Source: a virus
Length of the DNA: 43,266 nt
IMG/VR virus record: IMGVR_UViG_3300045988_018111
Coordinates: 1 to 43,266 of that record
Reading direction: 5' to 3' (one strand)
The position numbers were made by a program, and so were the translations under genes. The notes below the pieces were generated by a model. It was not told the DNA's origin and did not search any database. It was given only the letters and a program-made list of their open reading frames with translations. Shown in pieces: positions 166 through 29,781 of this stretch. Each line of letters opens with the position of its first letter. Positions within the stretch are counted from its first letter, which is position 1.

Positions 166-199
166 AAAAAGAGAAGCAGGGCTTTCGCCCCGCCTCTTC
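166..199 (-). terminator. Rho-independent terminator closing the early operon
   Basis: Minus strand GAAGAGGCGGGGC-GAAA-GCCCTGCTTCTC hairpin (with G:U pairs) followed by TTTTT, directly after the stop of 200..676. Confidence 0.7.
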
Positions 200-676
200 T
201 TATGCCATTTTGAGCTTTCTTTTGAGCCACGCCCACAGGTTGTGCCACGGGTGGGCTTCTGCGTAATTGGCGCGCCCAAGCTCAAAAGCGGCTCTATCCG
301 TCATTTTAGTTACGTCATTCCGCAGCGCGTTCTTTTCAGCTGCAGAATCCGTCAACTCTGCATTCGCCCGCCAAAGCGCCGCCTCGGTGGCATCGAGCTT
401 GTTCCGCATCGCGTCCGCGTCAGCTTTCAGATTCGCGATCACATTCTCGCGGGTGATGGCCTTGCCATTCATCTGGCTAATCTGCTCAGTCAGAGCGGCG
501 TTCTTTCGCTGCATCGCCGCCTTTAAATTCGCATATTCGGCAATCAGATCATTCTTCTCGTCGATACAGTTTTTCAGCTCGATGATCTCTGCTTCAAGCG
601 CCGCAGTCTTCTCCTGCGCGTCCTCCACCATCTTCGCCATCTGGTCTTTGGTGTACTTTTTGATGTTGATGCTCAT
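200..676 (-). CDS. Hypothetical coiled-coil protein (158 aa), last gene of early operon
   Basis: ORF track. ATGA overlap with upstream gene. Heptad-like A/E/K/L-rich sequence. No recognisable catalytic motif. Confidence 0.75.
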   Translation of the reverse strand: MSINIKKYTKDQMAKMVEDAQEKTAALEAEIIELKNCIDEKNDLIAEYANLKAAMQRKNAALTEQISQMNGKAITRENVIANLKADADAMRNKLDATEAALWRANAELTDSAAEKNALRNDVTKMTDRAAFELGRANYAEAHPWHNLWAWLKRKLKMA

Positions 677-1140
677 TCGGCCACCGCTTCCCCGACGATC
701 ACCCAGTCATCAGCCAGCATGTCGGCCTGCGAGGCTAGCCATCCGAGCTGTACGCCGGACGTGCCAACAAAGGCAAGCGCTTTGTTTCCGATGGCCTCGT
801 GATTGGCGTTAATTACCTCGTGCACGGCGTTCTCGTAGCTGATACGCTCCGCAAGCTCGACGTACTGGTTCTTACCGTTCCAACCGCGGCGTGCGATCTT
901 CATTCCTTTCTTCGCTGCCTCGATAGCAAGTCCAAAGCTCAGCCCGTCAGTCGGGCGATACGCCTCTTCAAAAACCTGCTTCGGGCTGAAAGATTCGTAC
1001 CCGTCAGGGTAGCGGACTTTGTAGCCATCTTCCTCGGTGTCCATGCTTCTCGGGATGGGATGGGTCTTCTCGTAAACTTTGCCGCCCTTGCGGATAGCCG
1101 GTGCCGCCTCGATAAGTTTCGTTCCGATGTACTTTTTCAT
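673..1140 (-). CDS. DUF2829 (Tad2-family-like) protein with N-terminal YIGTK...SPK..FE.AY module
   Basis: C-terminal half FGLAIEAAKKGMKIARRGWNGKNQYV...GWLASQADMLADDWVIV matches the hallmark DUF2829 pattern (A.kGkkvaR.gWnGk ... WlaSq.DmLaeDW). The N-terminal domain is of the kind commonly fused to it in phages. Confidence 0.75.
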   Translation of the reverse strand: MKKYIGTKLIEAAPAIRKGGKVYEKTHPIPRSMDTEEDGYKVRYPDGYESFSPKQVFEEAYRPTDGLSFGLAIEAAKKGMKIARRGWNGKNQYVELAERISYENAVHEVINANHEAIGNKALAFVGTSGVQLGWLASQADMLADDWVIVGEAVAE

Positions 1141-1172
1141 AGCAAAATTCCTTTCTTTTTCGCCCGCAGGCG

Positions 1173-19274: not shown

Positions 19275-22200
19275 TTACGCCGCTTTCTTCCTCATGATTG
19301 CAAGCTGCTCGTCCACCCGCGCGCGGTTCCAGTGGCGAATGCTCTTCCCGACGCCGAAGTCCTCAAATAGGGCCGCGCGCTGTTTATCGGAAAGCCCCTT
19401 CTGCTGATAAACAAGCTCCATGATCTGTAATCCCTCGCTGTTGCTGATGGTATCACCATTTTTGTCCTTCAGGCTTTCGATCCCGCCTTTTGCCAGATAA
19501 AGCGCAATATACTGGGCTTCTGAAACGCCCGTTTTTTTGACGGTATCTATGGCCTTTGCCGCCCATCCGTCCGTTTGGTAATTGCTCACGCTCATTTTCC
19601 CAACGATGTTGGCATATTCGTAGGCTTTCGCAACGGCATCTGCCTTATCGCCGTCGCTCATGGACTTATAGCTCGCAAGTCCCGTGAGCTCGCTGACGAT
19701 CTTATAGGAAGTCTGCCCGCGCTTTGTGGCGTACTTGACGTATTCCTCGCCGGTCAACTGTTTGTTTTCCTTATTCACGGTAAAAGATTTCGGTGCGCGC
19801 TGCGGCAGGACTTTGGCCTCACCGGTCGCCTCATACAGGCGGCTCAATTCATCTTCCATTTTGCTGCCGCTTACCTTCGAGGTATACGCGGGATTCGCAA
19901 AATTGTTAAATGCCCGCGCGATCACTCCTCCGGAGCTTTCCGTGCGTCCCCATGCGTCGATAAAGGGGATCTGCCCGTAGTCAACGCCCGGAATACGCGC
20001 GCTGGCCTTGCCGAGCGCATATTGCATATCCGGCGTCAGGAATTTGTTCTTATCCGTATAGGTCGTCATGCGCTCGCTTTCGCCCGTGCGCTCCGCCTGC
20101 CCGAAGACCGTCGGGATACCCTGCGTCAAATAACTCGTCGCCGCGCTTGCTACCGCACTGGTTAGTGCGTTTGTGTCCCCGGAGGACGCATACCCCACCG
20201 CGTCAAAAACGTCGTTCAGGCTTTGCAGACAGCTCATGGAAAGAAGCGGGTCCGTCACGTTGCTTGCTGCCTGAAGCATATCACTCATAGTGAGATACCC
20301 GTTGTTCGCCTGCATTTGCTCGTAAAGGTTTGCCCCGACGAAAAACGGAAGCGCTTCCGGCGCAAGCCAATCCAGCGTAATACTCGTGCCATTTGGCAGC
20401 TCCATCGCATATTCCTGATGCCCTTGCAGCTCGTCGAACTTTTTCTTCTTCTCGTCATCACCGCCGCTGCCGCGAAGAATGCCCTCTTTCGCCATATAAA
20501 GGCCGAGCATCATCAGCCCCGTGCCGGTCAGACCGGCGGCGGCACGGTCGATCATTTCGGTCGCCTGCATATTACCCTTCTGCACCTGCACAAGGTCATA
20601 GCTTATGCTTTTGAGGAAACCAATAGGGCTGTATTCCACGCCGCGCACCAGAATGTTGGCTGGTGTCTTGCGGAACGGCAGGATTCCTTCGGCGAGGGTG
20701 CTTCCGAGGCGTTTCATCTTGTTATCCCCGCGGTATCTGCCGAGATCGGAGATCATCTGTGAAAACGCATTGGTGTCTCGATAGGTTGCTTTCTGCGCCT
20801 CTCTGATCGCGTATTCGCGTGCCGCTTCAATGCCTTTCCCGCCAGCGACCTGCTCCGCGGTAATGCCATTTGCTTTGCAGAATTGCGCCAGCGCCGCCGC
20901 GTAATGCGGCTTGGAGAACCATGCGTCTTCCGCATCCAGCGCCGTGCTGTTAGATTTGCGCATCGCTTCCAGCAGCTTTGGTTTGAAGATCGTGCGCCCT
21001 TCCTCGATTTCCTGTCGCACATTGACATTATCATTGTACTTGCCGCTGCCGAGAGCCTGCTCGCGAATGTTGGCATAGTCACTCCATGCCGCCTTGATAA
21101 GCCCTGCGTCCTTCGTCGTCAGGATTGCCTTCGTGCGTCCGACTTTGCCGCCGCTCACCGCGTTCGCAGCGCTCTCAATGCCTGCGCCGATGACGTTCTT
21201 TACCGTGACAGCAGGAACAAATCCTACGTTGCCAACGATGTTGCGCACATGCGTGCGTGGATTACCAAGCATCGAAAAGTAGCGCCAAGCGTTCCATTTG
21301 TCAATGAAGCGGCTCGGCATCTGTCTGCCGATATCGCGATAGATTTCCTTCATCGCCTCGGTGCGCGCATCGTCGTCCTTTGCGTTCAGGAACTTCTCAG
21401 CGAGGTCGCGGTCAATCTCCAGATCAGGGGCCTTTTCCCCGTACTGCTTTTTGAGATCTTCTGTCAAGTTCTCCACGCTGCGCTGCGCCGCATAAAGCTG
21501 CGTACCGGGGTCCTGCTGCTTGAGCAGCCGCGTTGCCTGCAACGCCTGTGCCGCATTTCTCTGGCGCTTTACGATGGTGTCGAGCACATCGATAGCTGTC
21601 TCCACATCACCGCTGTTTGCTGCATTGTTGTAGAGCGCCCAGCCAATCGCCGTATTCTCCTTGCTGATTCCCTCTTTGGTGGAATTTTTCCATTTATTCA
21701 AGGTCTTTTGCCAGCCTTCGGTTTTGATGCGGCTTTCTGCGTCACTGATGGACTGCTTGTCCGTATAGCGGTCGTAGGAGAAATCTCCTTTTGCCACCAT
21801 TCGTTCCAACGTCGGCACCATTGCGTCCGGCGTTGCCTTTGCTTCCAGCACCGTGCGGATCGTGCGGCTGACGTATTTGTCGTCCGCCGTTTTCTTCGGC
21901 ACTTGTACCTCTCGGTACGCGCGCTCGCCCGCCGGGATATATCCGTACTTCTTTTTCAACGTTTCGTAGTTTGCCTCAGGGATCTCGCGGGAGAATGCCG
22001 CGTCATTCACGCTGTTGACTTTTGCTAAACGGTCCGCCTCATCTCCGGCGATATATTCCACCGTGTTGACCCCGGCATCCTGCAATGCGGCTTTCAGACG
22101 GTCGCTGCTGTTGTCCGGGATCACCGCTGCCAAAACTTCGTCAAACCCAACGGCGCGCTGGGGCTTGGCCTCAAAGTAGCCGGTGGGCATTTCCGCCGCC

Positions 22201-25200
22201 TCCTGGTAGACGGCCTGGATGTCCTGGGCCGTCTGGCTGCTGATTTTGTACCCCTCCTTGGAGAAGGCCCGCATGATAGCGTCCACCGTCCTCTTGCCCT
22301 TGGACGTTTCCATCAGGATGCTGCCGATGATGTCGCTCTCGACGAAGGAATTGTCGGAATGAGCCTTGTTTCCCTGCTTGATCTTCGTGATGATGCTGCC
22401 GATCTGGTCATCAATGGCCTGGAGCTTTGCTTCATACTCGGTCCCCTCGTCCATGCCCAGCCGCCCACTGTCCGCCTTGATCTCCTGGATGCTGCGGTAT
22501 TCCGGCGTCGCCACGGATTGCAGGGTCTTGGCGCTTGCGCCCCAGGTGCTGCCGCCGCGCTCCTCCTGGCCCTCCTTCATCGCCTTGACGATGTTCTCCA
22601 GGGTGTAGGCATAGTGGAGCTGCGAGAAACTGCGGAGATTGCCGGAGGGGGTGTAGGGGTCCTTGCCATTGTAGATGCCCGCCTCGCCCAGCAGGCCGTC
22701 CAGCTTCCCGGCAATCCACTCCTCAACGGCGTGGTCATCCACGGAGCTGCGCAGCGCGTCAGAGGTAGCCATCCGGTCAATTTCGCCCTTGGTCGCGCCG
22801 CCGTCCTGGTACATATCCCATGCGTGGTGAACGATGTCCTCCAGGGTGAAGATGGAAACGCCGTCCATGGAATTGTCGATGCGGTTCTGCCGTCTTTCGT
22901 TGATCTCCGCGTCGGTCCAATGCCTCTTGACGGCCATTCTGCGGAGCATGGGTTCGCCCTGTTCCCGGTAGTAGTCCCGGAGAATGTCGCGGATGACCTC
23001 GGCATTCTCGCCCAGGGCGTCCTTCACGCTCTCACCGGTCTCCAGGTTGGCCTCGATTTCAGCCAGCGTGTTCACGCCCAGGCGGTCAACCACCTTTTGC
23101 AGGGTGTCGTTACCGAACTTGTCCCACACCTTGTCCATCTTCACCGGCTCCAGACTCTTGCCCTGGTCTGCCAGATAGGCCGCCCGCACCGTGTCCGTGG
23201 AGGCCAGCTTCTCCGCCAGCTCTGCCGTGCTCCTGGTGCTGGTGTTGTCGATGCCCATAGAGCGCAGGGCGGCGCTGTTCCCGAAGATGCCCCCGGCCAC
23301 GGAGACATCCCCGGCCAGCCGGTGCAGCTCGTGCTCCACCTGGGATGCCTTTTTGCTGTTCACGGGGTAATCTACTCGCGGAGCTGTCGGCGTCCAGGCA
23401 TCGCCACCGTACACCTTGTTGGCGCGGAATAGCTGCGGGTCGATGGTGTCCTTGCTGAACACAAGGGAGATGGGGCCGTACTTGGTGTGCCCGTCCCTGG
23501 CTTTTACAATGGCGATAGAGGGCATGGGCAGGCCGCCCAGCTTCAGCGCGGACATGATGCTGGCCTCATCCTTGTTGTGGACGGCGATCAGTTTGTCAGT
23601 CTCTTCGACCGGCGTTTCCATGCTGAACTTCAGCTTGACATTTTGTACGCCACGAGATAGACTATCTACAGAAGCATTCCCTCGCAGAGCGCCGCTGTCC
23701 GCAGCGGAAGAGCCATTAATTTGGGGGATGCTTCTTTCTTGCATCTGCCCAATATTATAGATCATCTTACCGTCTGCGCTCTGCGCCGTCGATATCGTAA
23801 CCTTGTAATATTTCCCGTCAAAGTCTTTGAAAAACGCCGTGCGATAATTCCAACCGCTACTTGCCATGTCTCCATGTCGACTGTTATGATCTACAACGTT
23901 CCTGTCCCCCTTGACAGAAACCTGCGCCAACTCGTCAATATGCGATGCTGCATTTACTTTTCGCTCAAATGCCGCCTCGCTCATAGTACGCCCATCGCTG
24001 GTGTGGTTGTCGCTCAGTTTCCCTGCCGAGGTCGCAGTCAGAACCAATTCGTCGCCATCCGCGCCGATAAGCTTAACGTCTTGTCCACGGCGGATTTTCC
24101 CGTTAATATAGTCTTCCAGCTGTTCGCTCCAACTCTGCGGGTCATTTCCAAAAATGACCTGTCTGTCGGCGCGGACATACTTTTTGCCATCGGCAGCCTC
24201 TTCAATGCTCGCCCTGCCATTTATTTTGCTTGGCGGCGCACGCGTGCTTTCCTGCGCAACGGTTTCGCTCTCCACCTTGATATGCGCAAGAAGAAACGCT
24301 GCCGCATCGCTGATCTCACTGTCGGCGAAAATGTTCATATCGCCGAGGCTGTCGCAAACCACCTCTTCCCAAATTTCCTGCGCCGTCATTTCGGTGCCGG
24401 CATAAGCGTCTGCATACGCCGTGCAGAGGGAGTCGACCTCACCGCCGGTAAAGGTCTTATCGATGCGCGTGCGTACCTCGTTCAAATCGACTTCGCCCTT
24501 TGCGATCATATCATGTCCGGCCTCATGCCGCATGATCTGGTACGACGTAAATTCCGGATGATCCGCACGGATAAATACGCGGTCACCTGAAACGTAGCCG
24601 CGCACCTGGAACGTTTTCCCGCTCTTGTCACGGAACGTCAGATTATTTCCGGCAAAAAACGTCACGCGCAGGCCGCGCTCTTTGGCGAGGTCCTTCGCCT
24701 TGCGCATTTCCGCCGTCTCGTTCTTCACAAGATAGACGCTGTCATTGAATGCGCCTCTGCCGATGCCGAAGCTCGCAGTGCTTACTTTTTCTCCATAATC
24801 GAGCGAAGCTGCTTCGCTGTCTGCGAAGTGTCGCCCTTCCTTCCGGCCCGGATTTCGTCCTGCGCCTTCTTCCACGCCTCGTACTTCTCCGCGGGGATCC
24901 GCACCGTTATCCCGTTCGCTGCCGTTGCGTAAATGTACTGCTTCTCCATGTTCGGCTCCTTCCTGCTGCGCATATTCTGTGCGCAGCTCATCCATTGTCA
25001 CATCTCCTGTCTCGAGGGCAAGGCGGTTGTCAGTTACATACTTGTCAAAGCCGGTCGCCTGCACCTCTGCGCCTGCGATCTGCTGCTTTGCTGCAATATA
25101 ATCCGTATTGGGGGCAACCGCCGTTCCATCAACAGCAGTGTACCCATTCGTCAGCATGTCGTCAAGAACGATCTCGAGCGTTTTCGCCGCTTTGACATTC

Positions 25201-26957
25201 TCCTGTCCATTATCGTTGATGATGCGCTGCGCTGCATCAATGATTTGCGTGCGCGTCAGGCCCTCGTTCATCGCCTTGCGCATGGCGGGGGTCTCGAATA
25301 TCTGATTGTTTCTCTGGTATCCGTTTGCCGTCCGCTGCCGCGCGCCCTTCTGCTGTCCGCGCGAAAGGCTTATATCAGCGATACCGGCGATCTGCTCTGC
25401 CGCCGTACTGTAATAACCGTGCAGCTCGGGGTGGTCAAACTGGAAAGCGTTTACATTTCTGCTCGATACATTTTCCTTCGTGCGGCTGTCAATATGCTCG
25501 CCCGTTCCTGCCTCTTTCTTCGCGTCGTTCTGCCCCGCGACATAGCCTGCATAGGCCGTCTCATTCGTCGGGTTCGGGTTCGCCTTTCCCTCCACGCCCG
25601 CATTGTAGGCAGGGATAAAGTCCTTCACGTGCTGTGCCGTGTCCTTGCCCTCCTGATACGAGCCGCGAATCGCTTTTCGCCCGCTCTCACCCAGGGAGTT
25701 ATCAAAGCGCGCGAATCGGTTTGCCGCAGCTTCCACGCCGCCACCAATACCGCCGAGAATGCCGCCAACAAGGAAGTCATTCAGAACCTCCGCCGCTTCC
25801 AGCTCGCTGTAACTCCCACCGAGCGTCTTGCCGTTGTAGATCATCTGCAGCGCGGGCTGGACAAGATCCTCGATCACTTCCTCGCCGCCCTCTTCAATGA
25901 ACGACAGCGCGATCTTGCCCGCCGCGCTGTTATTGAGCCCCGACATCGTGCGCTCGATGACGCTATCTAAGAAGCCCCTGCCGAACATTTTCTTGAACGG
26001 CGCTGCCGCGTTGCCGATCTTCTCGGTTGCCACGCTAAGTGCGCCGCTTGCAAAGCCATAGTTGACCTGCTGCTCGTGCGTTGCGCCCTGTCTGCGTGCT
26101 TCCTGCGCGCTTCCGCCCGTACTGCGGACAAACATCGCAGGGAGTGCACTGCCACCCGTCAGAAGCCCGAGAGCCGCGTCCATGCCCATCTGCGCGCCCG
26201 CCACGCCAACGTCGACTGCAAGCCGCCCCGCGCCGCCAAGATCGCGCTTTGCCTTGCTGATGTCCTTTGCGCCGCTGTCGGCGAGTCGGTCGGCGGCCTT
26301 GTAGATGTTGCCCGCCGTGCGCTCCACCTCGCCGCCCTCGCCGTAAGCTTTTAGGTATGCGGCTTTCCGCGCTTCCAGTGCCGCAATGACATTTCGAGCA
26401 GTGTCGCGCTCGCTTTCGGTGCTGCTGGGGTCTGCAAGCACGTCCCGCTGTGCCTTGATATCCTGATCCCACAGGGCAATTTCGGTGTTTGCTTCCTCGC
26501 GTCGCTGCAATCCGCTGCCGGTCTGCGCCATACCGGTAAGGTTGACGAGCCCCGCGCCATAGGTTTTCGCCGCGCCCTTGACGGTGTTGCCGACGCGCTG
26601 CGCGACCGTGGGGGCTTTTACCTCCTGCACGTGCTGTTCGAACGCTTCTTTGCTCTGGTAGTTCTTCGCGTCCTTCTTCTGTAAGGCCCCCTGCGCAAGA
26701 TTCTGCGCAAGCGCGCTTTGATTTTTTGGCGTCACGACATTCTGCCGCGTGCGGAACATGGGGCTGCTCGACTTTGCGGGAATCGTTGCCGCCTTGCTCG
26801 GTTGCACTGTCGGCTTCTTCTGCACCACATTGCCCGTAGGGGATGTGCGCTTCACATCCCCCGTTCTCACAAGCCTGCCGTGCGTGCCGGTTCCAACAAC
26901 CGTCGTCTGGCCCTTGCTCGCTTCCACTTCCGGATTCGCTTTTACTAATCGTCCCAT
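19275..26957 (-). CDS. Giant 2560-aa virion-associated polyvalent-type protein with zincin HEXXH motif
   Basis: Single open frame, GAGGAGGG SD. Hydrophobic Gly-zipper segments (LAVDVGVAGAQMGMDAALGLLTGG; FLVGGILGGIGGGV). IMRHEAGHDM at aa 809..818 (HEAGH at 24513..24527). Late TM-like LTGTGLMMLGLYMA. Its position between tail genes and lysis is typical of ejection/internal proteins. Confidence 0.7.
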   Translation of the reverse strand: MGRLVKANPEVEASKGQTTVVGTGTHGRLVRTGDVKRTSPTGNVVQKKPTVQPSKAATIPAKSSSPMFRTRQNVVTPKNQSALAQNLAQGALQKKDAKNYQSKEAFEQHVQEVKAPTVAQRVGNTVKGAAKTYGAGLVNLTGMAQTGSGLQRREEANTEIALWDQDIKAQRDVLADPSSTESERDTARNVIAALEARKAAYLKAYGEGGEVERTAGNIYKAADRLADSGAKDISKAKRDLGGAGRLAVDVGVAGAQMGMDAALGLLTGGSALPAMFVRSTGGSAQEARRQGATHEQQVNYGFASGALSVATEKIGNAAAPFKKMFGRGFLDSVIERTMSGLNNSAAGKIALSFIEEGGEEVIEDLVQPALQMIYNGKTLGGSYSELEAAEVLNDFLVGGILGGIGGGVEAAANRFARFDNSLGESGRKAIRGSYQEGKDTAQHVKDFIPAYNAGVEGKANPNPTNETAYAGYVAGQNDAKKEAGTGEHIDSRTKENVSSRNVNAFQFDHPELHGYYSTAAEQIAGIADISLSRGQQKGARQRTANGYQRNNQIFETPAMRKAMNEGLTRTQIIDAAQRIINDNGQENVKAAKTLEIVLDDMLTNGYTAVDGTAVAPNTDYIAAKQQIAGAEVQATGFDKYVTDNRLALETGDVTMDELRTEYAQQEGAEHGEAVHLRNGSERDNGADPRGEVRGVEEGAGRNPGRKEGRHFADSEAASLDYGEKVSTASFGIGRGAFNDSVYLVKNETAEMRKAKDLAKERGLRVTFFAGNNLTFRDKSGKTFQVRGYVSGDRVFIRADHPEFTSYQIMRHEAGHDMIAKGEVDLNEVRTRIDKTFTGGEVDSLCTAYADAYAGTEMTAQEIWEEVVCDSLGDMNIFADSEISDAAAFLLAHIKVESETVAQESTRAPPSKINGRASIEEAADGKKYVRADRQVIFGNDPQSWSEQLEDYINGKIRRGQDVKLIGADGDELVLTATSAGKLSDNHTSDGRTMSEAAFERKVNAASHIDELAQVSVKGDRNVVDHNSRHGDMASSGWNYRTAFFKDFDGKYYKVTISTAQSADGKMIYNIGQMQERSIPQINGSSAADSGALRGNASVDSLSRGVQNVKLKFSMETPVEETDKLIAVHNKDEASIMSALKLGGLPMPSIAIVKARDGHTKYGPISLVFSKDTIDPQLFRANKVYGGDAWTPTAPRVDYPVNSKKASQVEHELHRLAGDVSVAGGIFGNSAALRSMGIDNTSTRSTAELAEKLASTDTVRAAYLADQGKSLEPVKMDKVWDKFGNDTLQKVVDRLGVNTLAEIEANLETGESVKDALGENAEVIRDILRDYYREQGEPMLRRMAVKRHWTDAEINERRQNRIDNSMDGVSIFTLEDIVHHAWDMYQDGGATKGEIDRMATSDALRSSVDDHAVEEWIAGKLDGLLGEAGIYNGKDPYTPSGNLRSFSQLHYAYTLENIVKAMKEGQEERGGSTWGASAKTLQSVATPEYRSIQEIKADSGRLGMDEGTEYEAKLQAIDDQIGSIITKIKQGNKAHSDNSFVESDIIGSILMETSKGKRTVDAIMRAFSKEGYKISSQTAQDIQAVYQEAAEMPTGYFEAKPQRAVGFDEVLAAVIPDNSSDRLKAALQDAGVNTVEYIAGDEADRLAKVNSVNDAAFSREIPEANYETLKKKYGYIPAGERAYREVQVPKKTADDKYVSRTIRTVLEAKATPDAMVPTLERMVAKGDFSYDRYTDKQSISDAESRIKTEGWQKTLNKWKNSTKEGISKENTAIGWALYNNAANSGDVETAIDVLDTIVKRQRNAAQALQATRLLKQQDPGTQLYAAQRSVENLTEDLKKQYGEKAPDLEIDRDLAEKFLNAKDDDARTEAMKEIYRDIGRQMPSRFIDKWNAWRYFSMLGNPRTHVRNIVGNVGFVPAVTVKNVIGAGIESAANAVSGGKVGRTKAILTTKDAGLIKAAWSDYANIREQALGSGKYNDNVNVRQEIEEGRTIFKPKLLEAMRKSNSTALDAEDAWFSKPHYAAALAQFCKANGITAEQVAGGKGIEAAREYAIREAQKATYRDTNAFSQMISDLGRYRGDNKMKRLGSTLAEGILPFRKTPANILVRGVEYSPIGFLKSISYDLVQVQKGNMQATEMIDRAAAGLTGTGLMMLGLYMAKEGILRGSGGDDEKKKKFDELQGHQEYAMELPNGTSITLDWLAPEALPFFVGANLYEQMQANNGYLTMSDMLQAASNVTDPLLSMSCLQSLNDVFDAVGYASSGDTNALTSAVASAATSYLTQGIPTVFGQAERTGESERMTTYTDKNKFLTPDMQYALGKASARIPGVDYGQIPFIDAWGRTESSGGVIARAFNNFANPAYTSKVSGSKMEDELSRLYEATGEAKVLPQRAPKSFTVNKENKQLTGEEYVKYATKRGQTSYKIVSELTGLASYKSMSDGDKADAVAKAYEYANIVGKMSVSNYQTDGWAAKAIDTVKKTGVSEAQYIALYLAKGGIESLKDKNGDTISNSEGLQIMELVYQQKGLSDKQRAALFEDFGVGKSIRHWNRARVDEQLAIMRKKAA
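24782..24949 (-). CDS. Embedded +1-frame ORF (55 aa) inside the giant gene
   Basis: AGGAAGGAG lies 6 nt before ATG 24949. MEKQYIYATAANGITVRIPAEKYEAWKKAQDEIRAGRKGDTSQTAKQLRSIMEKK. Third codon positions are strongly G/C as in real genes here, whereas the giant frame over the same bases is A/T at third positions and R/G/E low-complexity. Confidence 0.45.
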   Translation of the reverse strand: MEKQYIYATAANGITVRIPAEKYEAWKKAQDEIRAGRKGDTSQTAKQLRSIMEKK

Positions 26958-28194: not shown

Positions 28195-29781
28195 TCACTT
28201 TCTGCCGCCCGTCACGTATTCGTACTCGAGCGCATAGAGCCGGTATTCTCCTGTGGCTTTGATTTTTAATCTAAAGTGGTCGCAGCGGCGGATCGGGCAG
28301 TTGAGCGTGAAAACGTCTTTCTCCTGTGCCCCGCAGCGGTCGACCTCTTCCCACGCGCCGTCGTCGAACTTGACAAGGAACACGACCGTTGCACCCTTCT
28401 CGCATTCCAGCCGCGCCCGCACACGCTGCACGTGCTTCGCGTCAAACGATCCGCCGTCGTAGTCGGCAAACTCCGCCTCGCTGCTGACGGCTCCCTCGCG
28501 TGTTGCGCCGGTCGGGATATCTGCCGGATTCCCCAGCAGCACGCACCCACCGTCTACTAAGGCCATGATACCGCCCGAATAGGCCATTTGCACCACGGCA
28601 AGCGTATCTTCCTTATGCCACACGCCGTTTTCGCTGCTGTAGCAGTACAGCGCCGCCTTGCCATCCTCTTTCAGGCTCACGTAGTAGTTGAGGCCGTCGC
28701 TTCCTCCCACCGCGTCAGAGAGGCGCGCATCGTCGCCCAGCGTGCGGGAGATACAGCGCGGCATGCCGCCGCTGTACGCCATGATGCCGACCTTTGAGAG
28801 GTAATAGAGCGTTTCCCCCGCCACGGCGAGGCTCTTGTGGTTTCCCTTCATCACACCGAGCACAGCACTTGACATGAGTTGGAAGTTTGTCGGAATCGTG
28901 CCGTACATCTTGAAAATTTTGTCTTCTTTGAAAAAGCACGGGTAACCAAGGTAGCTCACGCACGCCGTGAATGCTCCCGCCGTGCCGCTCTCCACGCTGA
29001 ACGCATCCGTGGATAGTCCGTCAAACACGTTCCAGTTGTACGGGTCGCCGAGCTTTGAAGCAAAGATGCTGTCGCCCTTGCAGCCCCACACGCGGTTCTC
29101 GTTCGTGCAGACAAAATCCATGTCGGGAACGCTGCGCTTGAGCGTGACTGTTCCGGGCTCCGTGATGCTTTCCTGCCCATCGGGCAGGCGGAAAGTGTTT
29201 TCATAAAAGCGCAGCGTCTTTTTGTCTTCGCTGATCTCTCGGATGATGGGCGTGCGGTTGTTGTAGGTCTCCTTTGTACAGCCCGAGATCGTCACGGCGT
29301 CGCCCACGTTGAATGGGAACGCCGCGCCGGTCGTCGTGATGCTGTTTGCCGCCGCCTTTTCGTCGGCATACGTACCATTCCCGAATTTCAGCCCCGCCGC
29401 GGCGTAGCTCGCCTCCATCGGCTTGATCGTGCCGTCCTTTTCACACACGATCTTGTCGGGGAAGATGAGCACGCGCTCGCCCAGTGCACAGAAAGTCTTT
29501 TCGCTGTCTGCGACCGTCGACTTCTCCTCGCCGTTGACGTAGAGCTTCGTTCCGTATACCTCGTAGAGCTTTCCTGCACTGAAAATGCCGTTTGCCGTCC
29601 CCATATCCTTGCGGACGGTATAGCGCCTCGCACGGGGGGAAAGAAGCGGGAAGTATCGCGCCGACAGGTTCTTCATGTCGTAGAGCTCGCCGCCCGCCGC
29701 ACCGAACGTGTGGTTGATGCCTCCGAATTTCTCTTGCTGCACGCGCCGGTTCGTATATGCCGTGATATCAGGCAGTCTCAT
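28195..29781 (-). CDS. Tail hub/nozzle-type structural protein candidate (528 aa)
   Basis: ORF track. Beta-rich repetitive sequence. The functional call rests on position only. Confidence 0.5.
   Translation of the reverse strand: MRLPDITAYTNRRVQQEKFGGINHTFGAAGGELYDMKNLSARYFPLLSPRARRYTVRKDMGTANGIFSAGKLYEVYGTKLYVNGEEKSTVADSEKTFCALGERVLIFPDKIVCEKDGTIKPMEASYAAAGLKFGNGTYADEKAAANSITTTGAAFPFNVGDAVTISGCTKETYNNRTPIIREISEDKKTLRFYENTFRLPDGQESITEPGTVTLKRSVPDMDFVCTNENRVWGCKGDSIFASKLGDPYNWNVFDGLSTDAFSVESGTAGAFTACVSYLGYPCFFKEDKIFKMYGTIPTNFQLMSSAVLGVMKGNHKSLAVAGETLYYLSKVGIMAYSGGMPRCISRTLGDDARLSDAVGGSDGLNYYVSLKEDGKAALYCYSSENGVWHKEDTLAVVQMAYSGGIMALVDGGCVLLGNPADIPTGATREGAVSSEAEFADYDGGSFDAKHVQRVRARLECEKGATVVFLVKFDDGAWEEVDRCGAQEKDVFTLNCPIRRCDHFRLKIKATGEYRLYALEYEYVTGGRK

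Follow-up and report, generated by a model that had tools for sequence, protein, structure and literature searches.

Among the closest described relatives of the protein reported here are SPO1 Tad2 (gp34.65, PDB 8SME/8SMF) and HgmTad2/AcrIIA7 (8KBI-8KBM), phage-encoded members of the Tad2 family, whose members form homotetramers with the ligand pockets at the protomer interfaces. In SPO1 Tad2 the Thoeris signal glycocyclic ADP-ribose (gcADPR) is contacted by W25, N26, W73 and D79 and its adenine by T78, I63 and T65, while D67, H71 and S76 hold waters at the ligand (bioRxiv 10.1101/2023.05.01.538930). The contacts of HgmTad2 are W21, N22, G23, W87, L88, S90, T92 and D93, and binding was lost in the variants W21A/N22A and S90A/T92A/D93A (bioRxiv 10.1101/2023.11.15.567273). 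The tryptophan and the asparagine of the GWNG motif make the stacking and phosphate contacts to gcADPR (bioRxiv 10.1101/2023.05.01.538930; 10.1101/2023.11.15.567273). Here we describe a protein of 155 amino acids (aa) from the virus record IMGVR_UViG_3300045988_018111 (IMG/VR; the window, meaning the whole analysed stretch of 43,266 nucleotides), in which a Tad2-like domain follows an N-terminal domain of 66 aa.

Two further kinds of systems resemble this architecture. RyR Tad, which is gp68 of Pectobacterium phage vB_PatP_CB1, carries a homologous N-terminal domain in the same position, and its N-terminal part (gp68_N, aa 1-86) had 'no apparent activity' in tests with type I Thoeris; it crystallised as a domain-swapped dimer, strand beta1 completing the five-stranded sheet of the partner (bioRxiv 10.64898/2026.06.04.730250). 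As in the window protein this domain is fused to a gcADPR sponge domain, but RyR Tad's C-terminal domain is all-helical and similar to RyR Repeat12 instead of Tad2, and its N-terminal domain is more divergent. In the known fusions Acb4-Tad2 (phage Pm86), Tad2-Sequestin and Acb4-Sequestin (gp59 of phage Ab09) a Tad2-type or other sponge is likewise joined to a further small phage domain known from other sponges; both halves are proven sponges there, unlike the N-terminal partner in the window protein.

We propose, with a probability of roughly 65%, that the window protein is a Tad2 sponge for an ADP-ribose signal derived from proteins with a TIR (Toll/interleukin-1 receptor) domain, with 3'cADPR as the best guess, and that its N-terminal domain is a dimerisation or scaffold module. 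The protein, made from the early operon of a temperate phage of Oscillospiraceae, would form oligomers, and the Tad2 domain at its C-terminus would capture and hold a TIR-made alarm molecule, most probably the 1''-3' gcADPR (3'cADPR) of type I Thoeris, so that the Thoeris effector would stay inactive and the infection could proceed. We infer this oligomeric state, ligand and anti-Thoeris activity for the window protein, and in the same model the N-terminal 66 aa would be an accessory module dimerising via its swapped first strand and not the ligand-binding part. The finding predicts that prophages of human-gut Oscillospiraceae such as Flavonifractor and Dysosmobacter face TIR/Thoeris-type signalling immunity.

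The Tad2 domain and its pocket

The open reading frame (ORF) is real; its sequence is identical to the one quoted in the original prediction, which had been made from the DNA letters alone and had proposed a DUF2829/Tad2-like sponge with a fused N-terminal module, and a ribosome-binding site precedes its start codon (Table 1). The full-length protein matches PHROG 872 (E = 2e-45) and has more than 7,900 homologs; other PHROGs cover just its N-terminal or just its C-terminal half, so the protein consists of two separable modules. A search with PADLOC gave no match, as would be expected for an anti-defence protein.

Searching Pfam-A we found a single family, PF11195 ('Tad2-like'), with an E-value of 1.6e-19 and 70.7 bits, far above the gathering cut-off of 25 bits and spanning profile positions 2-73 of 73. 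Both hallmark blocks of DUF2829 are present, namely GWNGK (aa 86-90) and GWLASQADMLADDWVIV (aa 133-149). A phmmer search against the PDB sequences returned HgmTad2/AcrIIA7 (8kbi), SPO1 Tad2 (8sme, 8wje), ModTad2 (9eib, 8v3e), SptTad2 (8wjd) and a 158-aa AcrIIA7 entry (9kzr), all at E ~1e-10 and every one confined to the C-terminal half. An AlphaFold2 model of the full protein, modelled as a monomer from an alignment of 76 two-domain homologs (35-97% identity), reached a mean predicted local distance difference test score (pLDDT) of 87.6 and comprises two units, with five strands and one short helix in the N-terminal one (aa 2-60) and a leading helix, strands and a further short helix in the C-terminal one (aa 69-149). 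When the model was compared with the PDB using Foldseek the best 24 matches were all Tad2 (E = 7e-5 to 5e-3, probability 1.00) with target-normalised TM-scores of 0.58-0.82, so the predicted fold agrees with the solved Tad2 structures. We therefore regard membership in the Tad2 family as practically certain. By itself this adds little, since PF11195 is already named Tad2-like, the homologs number in the thousands and the two-domain architecture already occurs in phage N4.

With SPO1 Tad2 and HgmTad2 the window protein shares the Pfam domain, the predicted fold of helix alpha1 and an antiparallel sheet, and the GWNG and W-x-x-S-x-x-D pocket motifs, and its short insertion is SPO1-like. It differs from both in the additional N-terminal domain, in an alanine instead of a threonine at the adenine position and in a subclade-specific insertion. 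According to HMMER alignments the equivalents of the HgmTad2 contacts are W87, N88, G89, W134, L135, S137, A139 and D140, so that the pocket residues W87, N88, G89, W134, S137 and D140 are kept and the exchange falls on position 139, where T78 of SPO1 Tad2 or T92 of HgmTad2 contacts adenine. Among the 76 two-domain homologs G86, W87 and N88 are invariant (76/76) and W134, S137, Q138 and D140 show a conservation of 96% or more, while position 139 is threonine in 62 and alanine in 12, the latter forming a gut-Firmicutes clade.

The exchange is compatible with function, because the homolog Tad2_82 (IMG/VR Ga0244015_10031327, 80 aa), which carries an identical GWLASQADMLADDW motif including the change from threonine to alanine (bioRxiv 10.1101/2025.08.24.671296, Table S2), inhibited type I Thoeris alone, an effect seen both in liquid culture and with plaques (Hadary et al., bioRxiv 10.1101/2025.08.24.671296). 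Its identity to the window Tad2 domain is 43%, but it is a single-domain protein with another insertion and without the N-terminal module. The homologs Tad2_70, 71 and 83 with the motif WLASQTDML inhibit type I Thoeris too (bioRxiv 10.1101/2025.08.24.671296), which means that all four of the four tested homologs with WLASQ[T/A]DML in Table S2 of this preprint do so, and for this reason a sponge for the type I Thoeris signal is the best inference for the window protein.

The N-terminal domain and its partners

The fused module of about 65 aa named in the original prediction is a genuine domain with a fold of its own (AlphaFold2 model of the domain alone, pLDDT 90) that occurs in more than 1,200 cluster representatives. 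Its signature is M-x-x-[YH]-I-G-[TV]-K...A-x-P...G-Y-x-V-x-Y-x-D-G-Y-x-S-[WF]-S-P-K-x-V-F-E-x-A-Y, and per-position conservation identified K8, Y44, D46, Y48, S50, S52 and Y61 as near-invariant polar or aromatic residues. Searched alone against Pfam the domain found no family even at E = 10, and searches of the PDB sequences with the domain alone and as a profile gave nothing credible; the designed 'Cake' repeat proteins and CD3 epsilon that came up were judged spurious. In the PDB Foldseek found no significant neighbour of the domain model either (best E = 0.98), and a likeness to Tudor, SH3 and Mfd-RID barrels with query-normalised TM-scores of at most 0.55 was judged not informative. The matches in BFVD were all weak (E at least 3e-3) and concerned phage proteins without characterisation, among them a Yersinia phage RyR-domain protein.

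When 1.84 billion cluster representatives were searched exhaustively with phmmer, the domain matched 1,238 proteins at E <=1e-3. Of the 150 matches listed about 133 carry its start in their first 9 residues, and the protein lengths range from about 60 aa, where it stands alone, to about 350 aa, with one tandem duplicate (P0262). We scanned the 112 proteins of at least 105 aa among the matches listed with Pfam and found as partners Tad2 (PF11195) in 42, PF13876, which is the Acb4 sponge family (bioRxiv 10.1101/2024.12.30.630793), in 23 and PF21825, the Sequestin sponge family (bioRxiv 10.1101/2025.07.12.664507), in 14; there were also one sub-threshold match to an Acb2/Tad1 hairpin and a few singletons, which are probably gene-calling artefacts. 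Triple fusions of the domain with Sequestin and Tad2 exist as well. In the homolog tables of bioRxiv 10.1101/2025.07.12.664507 the motif of the domain occurs many times in Sequestin and twice in Lockin proteins, and the text of that preprint does not mention the domain.

A hidden Markov model (HMM) built from 271 N-terminal domains matches aa 4-64 of RyR Tad gp68 at E = 3e-14, showing that the two N-terminal domains are the same domain. Judged from these matches, the domain heads Tad2, Acb4, Sequestin, Lockin and RyR-type sponges, at least five unrelated sponge families. Its combination with Tad2 is a widespread architecture and not unusual, as PHROG 872 and gp49 of phage N4 illustrate. In N4 gp49 (GenBank EF056009, 34003-34485) the HMM matches aa 8-78 (E = 1e-28) and the C-terminal half is PF11195 (E = 8e-24), so that this model phage carries the architecture of the window protein, and the adjacent gp48 is PF13876/Acb4. 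The two proteins are about 39% identical; N4 gp49 has the pocket motif PWVPSQSDVL and sits in the N4-like anti-signalling hotspot, and N4 is a lytic podophage of Gram-negative bacteria. In the literature we came across no functional test of N4 gp49. As a side observation, EF056009 (locus L005, 2106-2959) gives N4 two adjacent sponge genes, gp48 for Acb4 and gp49 for the fusion with Tad2, and Pfam names PF13876 'N4 Gp49/Sf6 gene 66' though the PF13876 protein of N4 is gp48, a mismatch that could mislead annotation.

The role best supported for the N-terminal domain, and in our analysis the most likely one, is that of a dimerisation or scaffold module acting through a swapped strand. In the monomer model the window domain has five strands and a helix, and in gp68 the sheet is completed by the swapped beta1; the strict N-terminal place of the domain suggests a structural role for this strand. 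As a tentative alternative the domain might be a widespread anti-defence module with an activity of its own, borne by at least five unrelated sponge families and also encoded alone. Such an activity could be that of a sponge for a further signal, or that of a general sponge helper, for example one countering host systems that sense sponges.

If the domain bound a second immune signal, the protein would block two systems in the manner of the Acb4-Tad2, Tad2-Sequestin and Acb4-Sequestin fusions, which we consider doubtful. The fusion partners, almost solely sponge families, the triple fusions, the occurrence of the domain in the Lockin and Sequestin tables and in RyR Tad, its stand-alone and tandem copies and its near-invariant polar and aromatic residues all fit such a dual sponge, and the same guilt-by-fusion logic also led to the discovery of Sequestin (bioRxiv 10.1101/2025.07.12.664507). 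It is opposed by the inactivity of gp68_N towards type I Thoeris, the one system in which gp68_N was assayed, and by the RyR Tad crystal structure, for which no ligand was reported in the N-terminal domain. Moreover, the parts of the known sponge-sponge fusions occur in both orders, but this domain is nearly always found at the extreme N-terminus.

The practical value of the domain lies in marking sponge proteins of many families while having no Pfam family itself, which would have hidden it from Pfam-based fusion screens. Its profile could serve as bait, and whatever is fused behind it would be a candidate for a new sponge family. Separately, the metagenomic protein P0286 (3,743 aa) contains 12 tandem repeats (...GDLKVTQPDGSISSIKKDIFDQTYSPVPG...) that match aa 32-66 of the domain alone and ends in a P-loop kinase-like region, and we treated these repeats as a distant or convergent motif.

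Other ligands and other functions

Several points weigh against a type I Thoeris sponge with a scaffold domain. The ligands of Tad2 proteins vary and include 3'cADPR, His-ADPR, N7-cADPR, cyclic dinucleotides and cyclic UMP and CMP (cUMP/cCMP), and the specificity is not reliably readable from sequence; Tad2_71 with the motif W-L-A-S-Q-T-D, for example, inhibits Thoeris types I, II and IV. Several tested homologs inhibited nothing (bioRxiv 10.1101/2025.08.24.671296). The sole tested member of the insertion subtype of the window protein (NQY[VI]EL...N-A-x-H-x-A-I-G-N-K-A-x-A-F-V-G), Tad2_84, was inactive in all seven assays (bioRxiv 10.1101/2025.08.24.671296), but it is a truncated protein of 60 aa that ends in ...AIGNKAIAFVG and lacks the pocket half with W-x-x-S-x-x-D, so its inactivity is expected and uninformative for this subclade. 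In the pocket the water-coordinating D67 and H71 of SPO1 Tad2 are not conserved, the window protein having G129 and a deletion at these places. Concerning the architecture, neither the motif of the N-terminal domain nor its full-length fusion with Tad2 occurs among the 84 sponge proteins (0/84) of Table S2 in bioRxiv 10.1101/2025.08.24.671296, and the stand-alone and tandem copies of the domain suggest a possible function of its own.

The same sponge mechanism could be directed at another main ligand, namely His-ADPR (type II Thoeris), N7-cADPR (type IV), the cUMP or cCMP of Pycsar or a cyclic dinucleotide in a second pocket at the dimer interface, which we judge to be unlikely. Tad2 homologs of each such specificity exist, and the subclade insertion N-x-N-H-E-A-[IM]-G-N...A-F-V-G-T-S-G-V-Q, common to the window protein, gp19 of Ruminococcus phage phiRg507T2_3 and P0335, could build a different second pocket. 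However, the type II binders ModTad2, Tad2_68 and Tad2_76 have PS[VIS][SG]D where type I binders have ASQ[TA]D, and the W-L-A-S-Q-A-D of the window protein resembles the type I binders, the motif of ModTad2 (His-ADPR) being W-T-P-S-V-S-D. The C-terminal motif is also identical in Tad2_82 with its activity restricted to type I Thoeris.

For cyclic dinucleotides we compared the protein with HgmTad2, where the pocket is made of R31, S47, F70 and N85 in a 61-aa insertion between beta2 and beta5 (bioRxiv 10.1101/2023.11.15.567273). In our alignment R31 and N85 correspond to A97 and L132, and the insertion between GWNGK and GW is short, with 42 aa in the window protein compared to 43 in SPO1 Tad2 and 61 in HgmTad2; SPO1 Tad2 was not shifted in gels by the other cyclic nucleotides assayed (bioRxiv 10.1101/2023.11.15.567273). 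The suggestion that the protein might also be a sponge for the cyclic-oligonucleotide-based antiphage signalling system (CBASS) was thus rejected, as the required residues are absent. We also dropped the extension to type III CRISPR signals, since we found nothing that links Tad2 proteins to them. What stands of the original prediction is the DUF2829/Tad2 family, the gcADPR pocket, the two domains and the location in the early region.

The gene phiRg507T2_3 gp19 (locus L001, 2746-3255) lies between the holin and endolysin genes and encodes a degenerate and a canonical DUF2829 domain in tandem, the canonical copy being 70% identical to the window C-terminal domain with the same SQAD variant. 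Many loci in Clostridia match aa 57-151 alone, which indicates that the Tad2 subclade of the window protein is combined with various N-terminal parts.

A tether to capsids is very improbable. The N-terminal domain would then be a Dec-like OB-fold (oligonucleotide/oligosaccharide-binding fold) as in the decoration protein of phage L (PDB 6E3C), to which it bears a resemblance in a collinear motif (G-Y-L-F-R...S-K-x-x-F-E-x-x-Y in Dec aa 63-86), and the gene for Dec lies directly upstream of terS in phage L, a position similar to those of the window gene and of the homolog in phage Kapi1. Hadary et al. furthermore removed sponge homologs with 'PF21825 or PDB 6E3C' domains (bioRxiv 10.1101/2025.08.24.671296), and if this label means the N-terminal domain, a point which we could not verify, the filter may have removed proteins that carry it. 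The comparison by hhalign was not significant, however (P = 0.02-0.06, probability below 3%), a single-comparison hmmsearch gave E = 0.003 at 4 bits, no 6E3C chain was among the top Foldseek matches of the domain, and a sponge carried on the capsid surface would stay out of the infected cell. The Dec family is tiny with 18 proteins, and its likeness to the N-terminal domain is an unverified lead.

Equally hard to credit is an AcrIIA7-type anti-CRISPR that inhibits Cas9, a label which several database records give to homologs including phage proteins annotated 'anti-CRISPR protein' and which agrees with the sequence similarity to AcrIIA7/HgmTad2 (8kbi, 9kzr), because this annotation goes back to AcrIIA7, the Cas9 inhibition by HgmTad2 and other Tad2 proteins was not reproduced in vitro or in vivo (Li et al., bioRxiv 10.1101/2023.11.15.567273), and Yirmiya et al. 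argue for an anti-Thoeris role of DUF2829 proteins.

Phage genome and neighbouring genes

Table 1: Features of the Tad2-like gene and of the end of its transcription unit in the window.
Feature	Position	Strand	Details
Tad2-like ORF, complete	673..1140	minus	ATG start, 155 aa, N-terminal module and Tad2-like domain; from the ORF list
N-terminal domain, aa 1-66	943..1140	minus	five beta strands and a short helix
Tad2/DUF2829 domain, aa 68-149	694..939	minus	PF11195, phmmer, Foldseek
GWNG motif, aa 86-89	874..885	minus	W87/N88 equivalent to SPO1 W25/N26 and HgmTad2 W21/N22
WLASQADML motif, aa 134-142	715..741	minus	W134, S137, D140 equivalent to SPO1 W73, S76, D79
Ribosome-binding site AAGGA	1149..1153	minus	8 nt 5' of the ATG; sequence inspection
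Coiled-coil ORF, 158 aa, final operon gene	200..676	minus	start/stop overlap ATGA with the Tad2-like gene
Intrinsic terminator closing the early operon	172..197 (read 197-172)	minus	11-bp stem followed by a T-run

The window is the genome of a temperate, podophage-like gut phage of Oscillospiraceae. Its early genes on the minus strand encode the anti-repressor Ant, RecE-like and RecT-like proteins, a single-stranded DNA-binding protein, a replication initiator and a Holliday-junction resolvase, followed on the same strand by three helix-turn-helix proteins, a C5 methyltransferase, an ORF of unknown function, an ASCH-like protein and an N6/N4 methyltransferase. After these come two small ORFs, then the Tad2-like gene and the coiled-coil ORF, and finally the terminator. 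An integrase and a repressor-like gene are located on the plus strand at 11.7-14.9 kb, and past the circular junction follow terS, terL, portal, major head protein, tail fibres, internal virion proteins, a 2,560-aa protein and endolysin. A human faecal phage of 43.9 kb shows 93% identity over about 30% of the first 12 kb, and the nearest genomic relatives of the protein are found in prophages of Flavonifractor, Dysosmobacter, Oscillibacter, Faecousia and other Clostridia.

The accessory place at the end of the early region agrees with the original prediction, but the gene is the penultimate one of the operon and not the last. The methyltransferases said to stand beside it are also not direct neighbours, the nearest of these genes (1618-2454) being separated from it by the two small ORFs. 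When ten window proteins, the Tad2-like protein not among them, were compared by tblastn with 80 related prophage loci, we found no conserved partner gene, and the coiled-coil ORF was beside the Tad2-like gene in none of them (0/80). As the only recurrent element terL or terS appeared 1-3 kb downstream in 9 of the 80 loci. In the window one ORF, the terminator and the circular junction separate the gene from terS, and in phage Kapi1 the homolog lies between the lysis cassette and terS, two small ORFs before the latter. From the changing neighbours, the recurrence of terL/terS and the position in Kapi1 we conclude that the gene acts like a mobile accessory cassette placed where early and late genes meet.

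The coiled-coil ORF that ends the operon has no PHROG match, and its Pfam and PADLOC matches were just weak and below threshold, fitting a coiled coil. The metagenomic protein P0274 (244 aa) combines the N-terminal domain, Acb4 and a C-terminal coiled coil, and its tail ...ANYAEGHPWKNLWAWVKRKLKMA nearly equals the tail ...ANYAEAHPWHNLWAWLKRKLKMA of this ORF, an arrangement that could be a real fusion or an artefact of a frameshift or read-through. On the other side of the Tad2-like gene the two small minus-strand ORFs of 68 aa (1173-1379) and 85 aa (1306-1563) overlap as listed. The former more likely starts from the internal ATG at 1325 with a GGAGG motif ahead of it, and the two CxxC pairs of the latter would fit a zinc ribbon.

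Between the two methyltransferase genes lies the gene of the ASCH-like protein (185 aa, 2300-2857, minus), which matches the PADLOC candidate defence family PDC-M11B (E = 6e-17) and PHROG 3136 and represents a defence-type domain inside a phage early operon. Among the late genes the ORF of the 2,560-aa protein (19275-26957, minus) matches PHROG 22978 (function unknown) and adjoins a homolog of internal virion proteins (28195-29781); it may encode a giant ejection or virion protein.

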